NCBI RefSeq assembly: GCF_055900595.2
Contig: NZ_CM148325.1
Reading direction: 5' to 3' (one strand)
DNA: 64,000 bases
This document shows positions 10,868-14,313 of this stretch, piece after piece. The notes under the pieces are model-generated. The model was not told where the DNA came from and ran no database searches. It worked only from the letters and a program-made list of their open reading frames with translations. Every line of letters starts with the position of its first letter. The first letter of the stretch is position 1. The position numbers were made by a program, and so were the translations under genes.

Positions 10868-13045
10868 ATGATTACTCGTATTCATCGCAATTCTTTCTCT
10901 TTAAATATTAATAATACAGCCCAGACAAATGAACACCAAAACCTGAGTGAATTGTTTTATAAAGAACTCGAGAATAAATTTTCTGGCAAGGAGCTGGGGA
11001 CACCTCTATTAAAAAGCTTCTCAGAAAACTGTAGACAAAACGGCCGTCATATCTTTAGTAATAAGGATTTTGTCATTAAATTTTCCACGTCTGTCTTACA
11101 GGCTGATAAAAAAGAAATTACGATAATTAATAAAAATGAAAACACGACACTCACTCAAACCATTGCTCCAATATTTGAAGAATACCTAATGGAAATTTTA
11201 CCTCAACGCTTAGACACTCTTGATAAACAAGAATTAAACCTAACCTCAGATAGAAAAGAAAAAGAATTTCCAAGAGTTAAACTTAATGGTCAATGTTATT
11301 TTCCGGGGCGCCCCCAAAACCGTATAGTATGCCGACACATTGCTGCACAATATATTAATGATATTTATCAGAATGTTGATTACAAACCCCATCAAGATGA
11401 TTATTCTTCAGCTGAAAATTTTCTCGCTCACTTCAACAAAAAATGCAAAAACCAGACTTTGGCGTTAATTTCCAGCCGTCCTGAGGGGCGTTGTGTTGCT
11501 GCCTGCGGTGATTTCGGTCTAGTTATGAAGGCATATTTTGACAAGATGGAATCAAATGGTATCAGTGTTATGGCGGCCATATTATTGGTGGATAACCATG
11601 CTTTGACGGCCCGGCTAAGAATAAAAAATACAACTGAAGGATGTACCCATTACGTGGTTTCGGTTTATGATCCTAATGTAACTAACGATAAAATAAGAAT
11701 CATGAGCGAAAGTAAAGAGGATATTAAACACTATTCTCTGATGGATTTTATGAATGTAGATTATAGCCTCCTGAAATGGTCAAATGATCATGTTATTAAC
11801 CAATCTGTTGCAATAATTCCAGCACTTCCGAAAGAGCAGCTATTGATGTTAAAAGGATCTGTGGATGAAATAACCCCTCCATTATCACCTGCAACGATGA
11901 ATTTGCTCATGGCAATTGGTCAGAATCACAAACTTACGCAGCTGATGATTCAGCTCCAGAAAATGCCAGAACTACATAGAACAGAAATGTTGACTGCCTA
12001 TAATAGTATTAACCTACCAGGTTTATATTTGGCTATAAATTATGGTAATGCGGATATCGTTGAGACTATTTTCAATTCACTGTCAGCTCCTGGATATGAA
12101 GAATTACTCTCGAAAAAAAACCTCATTAATATTGTGGAGGCAAAAGATAAAAATGGTTGTTCTGGATTATTTTTAGCGATATCACGTAAGGATAAAAATG
12201 TCGTAACCTCGATTCTGAACGCCTTACCTAAACTTGCTGCTACACATCATTTAGATAACAAACAGGTGTATAAAATCCTGAGTGCCAAAAGTAGATCGTC
12301 CAGCCATGTTTTATACTATATTATGGCGAATGGTGATGCCGACATGCTGAAAGTTTTTTTGGATGCATTACCTTTGTTAATTCGCACATGTCATTTGACT
12401 AAAGAGCAGGTACTCGATCTCCTGAAGGCAAAGGATTTTTATGGTTACCCGGGGCTATACCTGGCGATGCAAAATGGGCATAGCGATATCGTGAGAGTTA
12501 TACTCGAAGCATTGCCCTGTCTGGCCCAGGAAATTAACATTTCCGCTTCTGATATTGTAGATCTTCTGACCGCCAAAAGTCTTGCGCGCGACACGGGTTT
12601 GTTTATAGCCATGCAGCGCGGACATATGAACGTTATTAAGACTATTTTTAACGCATTACCCACTCTGTTTAATACGTTTAAATTCGATAAAAAAAATATG
12701 AAGACCCTCCTCCTGGCAAATAATTCTAATGAATATCCCGGTTTGTTTTCAGCGATACAGCATAAACAACAAAACGTTGTAGAGACGGTTTATCTTGCTT
12801 TATCTGACCATGCACGCCTTTTTGGATTTACCGCTGAAGATATTATGGATTTTTGGCAACATAAAGCGCCACAAAAATACTCTGCCTTTGAGTTGGCTTT
12901 TGAATTGGGTCACCGGGTTATTGCTGAATTAATCCTTAATACGTTAAATAAGATGGCTGAAAGCTATGGCTTTACGGATAACCCTCGATACATCGCGCTG
13001 ATGAATCCCCTAATGATTTTTATCAAAATCATTAAGTTAAGGTAG
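10868..13045 (+). CDS. arpA: ankyrin-repeat protein ArpA; native C-terminus replaced by IS10-encoded codons (last native codon ends at 12997)
   Basis: AT-rich ORF; C-terminal half carries about 7 ankyrin-like repeats (GLYLA..G..D.V..I..ALP.L); reading frame runs across the IS10 outside end and stops inside IS10. Confidence 0.85.
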   Translation: MITRIHRNSFSLNINNTAQTNEHQNLSELFYKELENKFSGKELGTPLLKSFSENCRQNGRHIFSNKDFVIKFSTSVLQADKKEITIINKNENTTLTQTIAPIFEEYLMEILPQRLDTLDKQELNLTSDRKEKEFPRVKLNGQCYFPGRPQNRIVCRHIAAQYINDIYQNVDYKPHQDDYSSAENFLAHFNKKCKNQTLALISSRPEGRCVAACGDFGLVMKAYFDKMESNGISVMAAILLVDNHALTARLRIKNTTEGCTHYVVSVYDPNVTNDKIRIMSESKEDIKHYSLMDFMNVDYSLLKWSNDHVINQSVAIIPALPKEQLLMLKGSVDEITPPLSPATMNLLMAIGQNHKLTQLMIQLQKMPELHRTEMLTAYNSINLPGLYLAINYGNADIVETIFNSLSAPGYEELLSKKNLINIVEAKDKNGCSGLFLAISRKDKNVVTSILNALPKLAATHHLDNKQVYKILSAKSRSSSHVLYYIMANGDADMLKVFLDALPLLIRTCHLTKEQVLDLLKAKDFYGYPGLYLAMQNGHSDIVRVILEALPCLAQEINISASDIVDLLTAKSLARDTGLFIAMQRGHMNVIKTIFNALPTLFNTFKFDKKNMKTLLLANNSNEYPGLFSAIQHKQQNVVETVYLALSDHARLFGFTAEDIMDFWQHKAPQKYSAFELAFELGHRVIAELILNTLNKMAESYGFTDNPRYIALMNPLMIFIKIIKLR
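12989..12997. repeat. IS10 target-site duplication, left copy (TACATCGCG)
   Basis: Identical 9-mer immediately flanks both IS10 termini. Confidence 0.9.
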
Positions 13046-13112
13046 ATACACATCTTGTCATATGATCAAATGGTTTCGCCAAAAATCAATAATCAGACAA
13101 CAAAATGTGCGA
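13043..13112 (-). ncRNA. expected position of IS10 antisense RNA-OUT (pOUT transcript opposing the start of the transposase mRNA)
   Basis: Placed only by analogy to the known IS10 layout (about bp 46-115 of the element); not independently visible. Confidence 0.4.
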
Positions 13113-14313
13113 ACTCGATATTTTACACGACTCTCTTTACCAATTCTGCCCCGAATTACACTTAAAACGACTCAACAGCTTAACGTTGGCTTGCCACGCC
13201 TTACTTGACTGTAAAACTCTCACTCTTACCGAACTTGGCCGTAACCTGCCAACCAAAGCGAGAACAAAACATAACATCAAACGAATCGACCGATTGTTAG
13301 GTAATCGTCACCTCCACAAAGAGCGACTCGCTGTATACCGTTGGCATGCTAGCTTTATCTGTTCGGGCAATACGATGCCCATTGTACTTGTTGACTGGTC
13401 TGATATCCGTGAGCAAAAACGGCTTATGGTATTGCGAGCTTCAGTCGCACTACACGGTCGTTCTGTTACTCTTTATGAGAAAGCGTTCCCGCTTTCAGAG
13501 CAATGTTCAAAGAAAGCTCATGACCAATTTCTAGCCGACCTTGCGAGCATTCTACCGAGTAACACCACACCGCTCATTGTCAGTGATGCTGGCTTTAAAG
13601 TGCCATGGTATAAATCCGTTGAGAAGCTGGGTTGGTACTGGTTAAGTCGAGTAAGAGGAAAAGTACAATATGCAGACCTAGGAGCGGAAAACTGGAAACC
13701 TATCAGCAACTTACATGATATGTCATCTAGTCACTCAAAGACTTTAGGCTATAAGAGGCTGACTAAAAGCAATCCAATCTCATGCCAAATTCTATTGTAT
13801 AAATCTCGCTCTAAAGGCCGAAAAAATCAGCGCTCGACACGGACTCATTGTCACCACCCGTCACCTAAAATCTACTCAGCGTCGGCAAAGGAGCCATGGA
13901 TTCTAGCAACTAACTTACCTGTTGAAATTCGAACACCCAAACAACTTGTTAATATCTATTCGAAGCGAATGCAGATTGAAGAAACCTTCCGAGACTTGAA
14001 AAGTCCTGCCTACGGACTAGGCCTACGCCATAGCCGAACGAGCAGCTCAGAGCGTTTTGATATCATGCTGCTAATCGCCCTGATGCTTCAACTAACATGT
14101 TGGCTTGCGGGCGTTCATGCTCAGAAACAAGGTTGGGACAAGCACTTCCAGGCTAACACAGTCAGAAATCGAAACGTACTCTCAACAGTTCGCTTAGGCA
14201 TGGAAGTTTTGCGGCATTCTGGCTACACAATAACAAGGGAAGACTCACTCGTGGCTGCAACCCTGCTTACTCAAAATCTATTCACACATGGTTACGTTTT
14301 GGGGAAATTATGA
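13105..14313 (+). CDS. tnp: IS10 transposase (DDE)
   Basis: 402 aa, MCELDILHDSLYQFCPELHLKRL... matches the Tn10/IS10 transposase as I recall it; DDE contexts VLVDWSD, IVSDAGF, QIEETFRDLK present. Confidence 0.95.
   Translation: MCELDILHDSLYQFCPELHLKRLNSLTLACHALLDCKTLTLTELGRNLPTKARTKHNIKRIDRLLGNRHLHKERLAVYRWHASFICSGNTMPIVLVDWSDIREQKRLMVLRASVALHGRSVTLYEKAFPLSEQCSKKAHDQFLADLASILPSNTTPLIVSDAGFKVPWYKSVEKLGWYWLSRVRGKVQYADLGAENWKPISNLHDMSSSHSKTLGYKRLTKSNPISCQILLYKSRSKGRKNQRSTRTHCHHPSPKIYSASAKEPWILATNLPVEIRTPKQLVNIYSKRMQIEETFRDLKSPAYGLGLRHSRTSSSERFDIMLLIALMLQLTCWLAGVHAQKQGWDKHFQANTVRNRNVLSTVRLGMEVLRHSGYTITREDSLVAATLLTQNLFTHGYVLGKL

Follow-up and report, generated by a model that had tools for sequence, protein, structure and literature searches.

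A solitary IS10 of the Left sequence type in the arpA tail of Escherichia coli and the control region at its outside end

An insertion sequence (IS) lies at the arpA-aceK locus in a 64,000-nt stretch of contig NZ_CM148325.1 (NCBI RefSeq assembly GCF_055900595.2; this whole 64-kb stretch is referred to as the window). Its terminus towards arpA, at 12998-13120, raises the questions to which element it belongs, which regulatory signals it carries, and what the insertion means for the genes on either side. With a probability of about 95%, this region is in our view the outside end of a single IS10 copy, intact and solitary (12998-14326), which belongs to the IS10-Left sequence type.

Identity and type of the element

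The element comprises 1,329 bp on the plus strand (12998-14326; element position 1 corresponds to window position 12998) and represents a complete IS10 identical to the gltS/jemA-side copy of plasmid R100. The outside-end terminus CTGATGAATCCCC... begins at 12998 and is the sole such end in the window (0 expected by chance); likewise, the 19-mer CTGATGAATCCCCTAATGA from 12998 onward occurs only once, the chance expectation being none. The other end of the element, at 14326, reads ...GGGGATCTCTCAG. The outside-end terminal inverted repeat (element 1-23; 12998-13020, plus strand) is matched by a single site in the window and agrees with the reverse complement of the inside end at 17 of 23 positions, while the inside-end repeat, as read from the sequence, occupies 14304-14326 on the minus strand and includes a GATC. 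The element thus displays the imperfect terminal inverted repeats of about 23 bp, beginning with CTGA, of the IS4-family member IS10. The transposase gene (13105-14313, plus strand) is an intact open reading frame (ORF) of 402 amino acids with a DDE_Tnp_1 domain (Pfam PF01609, E = 1.5e-24). Its ATG at 13105 corresponds to element position 108, as stated in the original prediction, which had also taken 12998 for the IS10 outside end; the latter is borne out by the terminus, the position of the ATG and the Rfam match to RNA-OUT described below.

On either side of the element lies a perfect direct repeat of 9 bp, TACATCGCG, its left copy at 12989-12997 (arpA codons 708-710) and its right copy at 14327-14335; at the empty site in other E. 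coli, this 9-mer is present in a single copy. The target agrees with the strict IS10 consensus NGCTNAGCN at three of the six specified bases and, read from the sequence, is compatible with the relaxed consensus NRCNNNGYN (PMC4574204). Nothing speaks against the identification as IS10, and chance is no issue, since identity to a Tn10 copy of R100 amounts to 100% over the full length.

The sequence type being exactly that of the left arm of Tn10 in R100, the segment might be regarded as an arm of composite Tn10, or of another IS10-flanked transposon, rather than as a solitary IS. However, a search of the window tolerating up to 4 mismatches yields only one outside and one inside end, the 9-bp duplication brackets a single 1,329-bp element, the flanks are contiguous arpA-aceK chromosome and no tet genes are located nearby, leaving this interpretation with a vanishingly small probability. 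Composite Tn10, i.e., two inverted IS10 copies around tet genes, was accordingly dismissed in favour of a single element with its own duplication.

Assignment to the Left sequence type is based on comparison with both IS10 copies of Tn10 in R100. Over all 1,329 positions, the element shows no difference from the gltS(jemA)-side, tetR-side copy (R100/NR1, NC_002134, 36132-37460), the gene of which is labelled 'IS4-like element ISVsa5 family transposase' by NCBI; it is also 100% identical to many plasmid copies. In the map of Tn10 given by Chalmers et al. (2000), this R100 counterpart is reportedly IS10-Left. Ends, Dam sites, RNA-OUT, IHF site and the 402-aa transposase are shared by the two, IS10-Left being an arm of Tn10 in R100 and the window copy standing alone in the chromosome, inside arpA. 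The tetD-side R100 copy, in contrast, differs at 15 positions (24, 25, 27, 47, 83, 107, 410, 425, 903, 1249, 1268, 1271, 1272, 1281 and 1300), six of which fall within element 1-107 (12998-13104) and which entail four amino-acid changes. That the element is instead IS10-Right, the active reference copy, to which the published quantities for pIN, RNA-IN and RNA-OUT would apply unchanged, is extremely improbable: length, ends and gene are the same, and element 108-409, covering the pOUT region and early coding sequence, is base-for-base identical in both types, yet 15 differences stand against zero, and the predicted RNA-OUT is slightly less stable in the window copy (-21.3 vs -23.9 kcal/mol). 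This identity was rejected on the R100 comparison; a reversal of the two labels is disfavoured by the Tn10 gene order IS10L...tetR-tetB...IS10R (PMC2258188) and by the published naming of solo IS10L (PMC11148124). By its sequence, the window copy is assigned to the IS10-Left type, a label based on indirect sources, namely the Tn10 map, the gene order and the naming of the solo copy.

Solo 'IS10L' copies of K-12 laboratory strains (XL1-Blue F', DH10B, JM109, NEB5-alpha) are likewise solitary, with a Left-type outside end and a 9-bp duplication (PMC11148124, PMC11481808), and the XL1-Blue copy, named IS10L in PMC11148124, has the same six outside-end bases as the window copy. The latter is of the Left type throughout and resides in a host other than K-12, whereas that of XL1-Blue is hybrid in composition, carrying Left-type bases at element 24-903 and Right-type bases at 1249-1300. 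This published solo 'IS10L' corresponds to 17958-19286 of the XL1-Blue F' plasmid NZ_CP132549, and its mosaic sequence suggests recombination or gene conversion between Tn10 arms.

Control region at the outside end

The original prediction expected the known IS10 layout at this end. pIN and the associated Dam site, RNA-IN, RNA-OUT and pOUT are indeed present in this arrangement; the layout, however, was worked out on IS10-Right, whereas the present copy is of the Left type. Proceeding inwards from the terminal repeat, an IHF-binding site AATCATTAAGTTA (element 30-42; 13027-13039, plus strand) matches WATCAANNNNTTR at 12 of 13 positions; the outside-end IHF site is known to reach bp +42 (PMC3159471). 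The weak transposase promoter pIN probably occupies 13043-13071 (plus strand), with TAGATA (element 46-51) as -35 and TCAAAT (element 69-74) as -10 hexamer, a placement deduced from the RNA-IN start and from the overlap of a Dam site with the pIN -10 (PMC5006887). This GATC is located at 13064-13067 (element 67-70), inside TCATATGATCAAATGG, and a second one at 14317-14320 (element 1320-1323), inside GGGGATCTCTCAG; both had been anticipated (about 13064 and about 14316). They are the only two GATC in the whole element, compared to about five expected from base composition, and lie where the Dam sites of IS10 are known to be, their role being described in PMC5006887 and in Roberts et al. 1985, cited therein.

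On the minus strand, a full-length match to the Rfam family RNA-OUT (RF00240) extends from 13112 to 13043; it scores 97.3 bits, the gathering score being 41 (E = 2.6e-20). With the 3' end at nt 47 (PMC5006887), the antisense RNA comprises 69 nt (element 115 to 47; 13044-13112, minus strand) and is predicted to adopt the long stem-loop expected of it (-21.3 kcal/mol, z = -3.6). Its target, the 5' 35 nt of RNA-IN (element 81-115; 13078-13112, plus strand), includes the transposase AUG; the RNA-IN start was derived from the 35-nt IN/OUT overlap (PMC5006887, PMC1994261) together with the RNA-OUT start given by the Rfam match. RNA-IN and RNA-OUT of the window copy form a perfect 35-bp duplex. The pOUT promoter region (element ~116-150; 13113-13147, minus strand), as read from the sequence, contains TAAAAT at -13 to -8 of the RNA-OUT start, and its core extends partly beyond 12998-13120, the interval named in the original prediction. 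pOUT was characterised in the IS10-Right type, and its promoter activity is taken from the literature.

By homology to the characterised element, full Dam methylation of both GATC would hold pIN as well as the inside end in check at all times other than immediately after replication. RNA-OUT would base-pair to the initial 35 nt of RNA-IN, beginning where its loop meets the 5' end of RNA-IN, and prevent ribosome binding (PMC4513863, PMC5006887); such control would matter mainly with several copies present and be weak for a single copy. A fraction of the pOUT transcripts may exit via the terminus, here antisense to arpA, pOUT read-through being known to enter flanking DNA (PMC2744996, PMC9330008). 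The antisense direction had been proposed before and agrees with the orientation of the sequence, pOUT pointing towards lower coordinates.

Architecture and both GATC are the same in the window copy and in IS10-Right, the experimental reference for pIN, pOUT, RNA-IN, RNA-OUT and Dam control. Differences from IS10-Right comprise T24, A25 and C27 in the interval that separates terminal repeat and IHF site, A47, which belongs to the putative pIN -35 as well as to the 3' end of RNA-OUT, C83 (G in the Right type) at RNA-IN nt 3 and in the RNA-OUT loop, and A107 (G107A), the base preceding the AUG and part of the RNA-OUT stem; the nine further positions include the amino-acid changes V266I, L381S, A389T and A398V. 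The predicted RNA-OUT of the Left type is weaker by 2.6 kcal/mol, because nt 9 of RNA-OUT is U instead of C, so that a C-G pair is replaced by U-G. At C83 (window 13080), antisense pairing across types would be mismatched at the nucleation site, with predicted energies of -9.5 and -6.9 kcal/mol for the two cross pairings as compared to about -13 kcal/mol for matched pairs; the mismatch would be relevant only with both IS10 types in one cell.

Two points weigh against the reading of 12998-13120 as the outside end of an IS10-Left-type element with this control region. A generic sigma-70 scan of 12800-14600 called neither pIN nor pOUT, for which reason the hexamer positions given here are our inference from published work and from identity with the characterised IS10. 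In addition, IS10-Left is regarded in the literature as inactive or of low activity (PMC11148124).

The insertion site and its neighbours

In E. coli Z0117EC0005, where the locus is uninterrupted, arpA encodes 728 amino acids and converges with aceK, the two genes overlapping tail to tail by 32 bp. Removal in silico of the IS and one repeat copy from the window yields a sequence identical to this strain in 6,799 of 6,800 bp. The reconstructed empty site is 100% identical over 800 bp to eight E. coli genomes. The arpA-aceK region is variable as such: the 800-bp empty-site query is covered to at least 80% in 4,086 of 5,426 complete E. coli genomes, leaving about a quarter below that threshold.

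Because of the tail-to-tail overlap, IS10 sits within the arpA reading frame, which it breaks after codon 710. The truncated gene (10868-13045, plus strand; ORF and reconstruction) consists of 710 native and 15 IS-encoded codons, and the first 710 amino acids are identical to intact ArpA of Z0117EC0005. Hence, the ArpA C-terminus is replaced by IS-encoded residues, the last 18 amino acids giving way to 15; the TAG ending the fusion frame (element 46-48) exists only through the Left-type A47. The orphaned 3' end of arpA, i.e., its last 18 codons and stop, is found at 14336-14392 (plus strand, reconstruction) and overlaps the 3' end of aceK. The latter gene is intact (14361-16097, minus strand, 578 amino acids), its stop codon lying 34 bp from the IS10 inside end. 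The outside end had been described as facing arpA, which is right as to position but incomplete, as the IS lies inside the arpA ORF; similarly, the inside end does lie in what had been called the aceK 3' untranslated region, 34 bp past the stop, but the same stretch is also arpA coding sequence. The locus should therefore be annotated as arpA::IS10 (ArpA C-terminal truncation/fusion) with aceK intact, rather than as an insertion between genes.

In ArpA, a ShET2 enterotoxin N-terminal domain (Pfam Toxin_15; residues 130-379) is followed by ankyrin repeats (479-551), and the lost tail lies outside every recognised domain. NCBI annotates arpA as encoding a ShET2/EspL2-family type III effector toxin. 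The phenotypic effect of the insertion is probably negligible.

An influence of the inside end on termination of the aceBAK transcript had also been suggested. A terminator scan over 12800-14600 revealed no terminator-like site just downstream of aceK, the same scan at the uninterrupted locus found none downstream of aceK either, and the aceK 3' region folded with and without IS10 gave no structure better than shuffled sequence. A displaced aceK terminator was dropped on these grounds, and the suggestion is unsupported; moreover, transcripts of BL21(DE3) mostly end prematurely inside aceK, and arpA is not expressed in this strain (PMC5435950).

Transcription across the two IS10 boundaries nevertheless raises the question whether the insertion was selected for rewiring its neighbours, either by pOUT-derived antisense silencing of arpA or by inside-end promoters or loss of the 3' region changing the control of aceK and the glyoxylate shunt. 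In other cases, pOUT read-through activates or affects neighbouring genes (PMC2744996, PMC9330008). Furthermore, promoters pIII and OUTIIp have been reported within element nt 1000-1230, where the two IS10 types do not differ, and were proposed as source of read-through into adjacent DNA (PMC11481808); their output, if leaving through the inside end, would run antisense into aceK, a point not considered in the original prediction. From the geometry, aceBAK read-through would now enter IS10 antisense to the transposase gene. Against selection stand the absence of the insertion from the 5,426 complete E. coli genomes, i.e., it is neither recurrent nor fixed, as well as the nature of the target: arpA is a dispensable gene of unknown function, disrupted in B strains and not expressed in BL21(DE3) (PMC5435950), and about a quarter of the genomes lack most of the empty-site query. 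Since, in addition, aceK retains its full ORF, most of its transcripts stop early within the gene and no terminator-like signal was displaced, selected rewiring appears very unlikely.

Overlooked so far was the shared orientation of arpA and the transposase gene: arpA runs into the outside end, and from this geometry its transcripts would enter the transposase gene in the sense direction. IS10 is known to be protected from outside promoters by a fold-back structure hiding the start codon (Davis et al. 1985, cited in PMC13181058). The corresponding sense-strand hairpin (element 52-61 with 103-112; window 13049-13109) has a predicted energy of -12.3 kcal/mol in the Left vs -18.7 kcal/mol in the Right type, being weaker because G107A turns one pair into a C.A mismatch; in RNA-OUT, the same exchange results in just a harmless G.U pair. 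In modelled arpA read-through RNAs, the opening energy of element 95-113 amounts to 5-8 kcal/mol for the Left and ~12 kcal/mol for the Right type, the value for native RNA-IN being 3.4-3.8 kcal/mol. The TAG created by A47, at which arpA translation stops, precedes the hairpin by 3 nt, so that terminating arpA ribosomes would melt its 5' arm. One may thus speculate that in this insertion transposase synthesis is coupled to arpA expression and one layer of IS10 self-protection weakened. This model is unlikely, given that the Left-type hairpin is still predicted in 70-80% of the ensemble and that arpA appears to be barely expressed (PMC5435950).

Further features of the window include three tandem Rfam naRNA4 matches (REP-type, i.e., repetitive extragenic palindromic, repeats) between aceK and aceA (16125-16385, minus strand). 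Standard E. coli features are a lysine riboswitch (1-165), cut by the window start and located upstream of a 449-aa ORF (likely lysC), and a thiamine pyrophosphate (TPP) riboswitch (38521-38621) upstream of a 631-aa ORF (likely thiC). Two ribosomal RNA operons are encoded on the minus strand (21668-26679 and 61961-64000, the second cut by the window end), with a StyR-44 match (24791-24899) and a transfer RNA (24980-25052) in the 16S-23S spacer. In an apparent ribosomal-protein/nusG cluster, a 437-aa ORF (54175-55488, plus strand) lies opposite a 234-aa ORF (54298-55002, minus strand); the former is probably a spurious antisense ORF.

Distribution and recency of the insertion

IS10 is widespread, being present in 1,902 of the 5,426 complete E. 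coli genomes (35%) at 6,603 places. In 1,387 records the best IS10 copy is at least 99% identical to the window copy, and a Left-type outside end at an identity of at least 99% is found in 749 records. The insertion itself is private: neither IS10/arpA junction has a match in the 5,426 complete genomes, the 33-nt left junction has none among 100,044 species-representative genomes, and a look-up of the ArpA-IS fusion protein in the assembly collection gave no exact record. Being private and set in a background nearly identical to that of an uninterrupted strain, the insertion indicates recent transposition, which would have followed the usual cut-and-paste route, duplicating the 9-bp target TACATCGCG in the arpA tail. 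Judged from the sequence, the IS10-Left-type copy has moved recently, by itself or with transposase supplied by another copy outside the window. Solo IS10L copies are known, one of which was seen inserting during a fermentation run (PMC11481808); in view of such reports on mobile solo IS10L, recent movement of a Left-type IS10 is not new.

The feature represents a known and ordinary mobile element equipped with a textbook control region. The Left/Right differences at the antisense nucleation site and in the fold-back hairpin provide a small testable point, opening no new question. The insertion adds one more natural case of a recently moved Left-type IS10, which fits the reports of IS10L mobility in laboratory strains.

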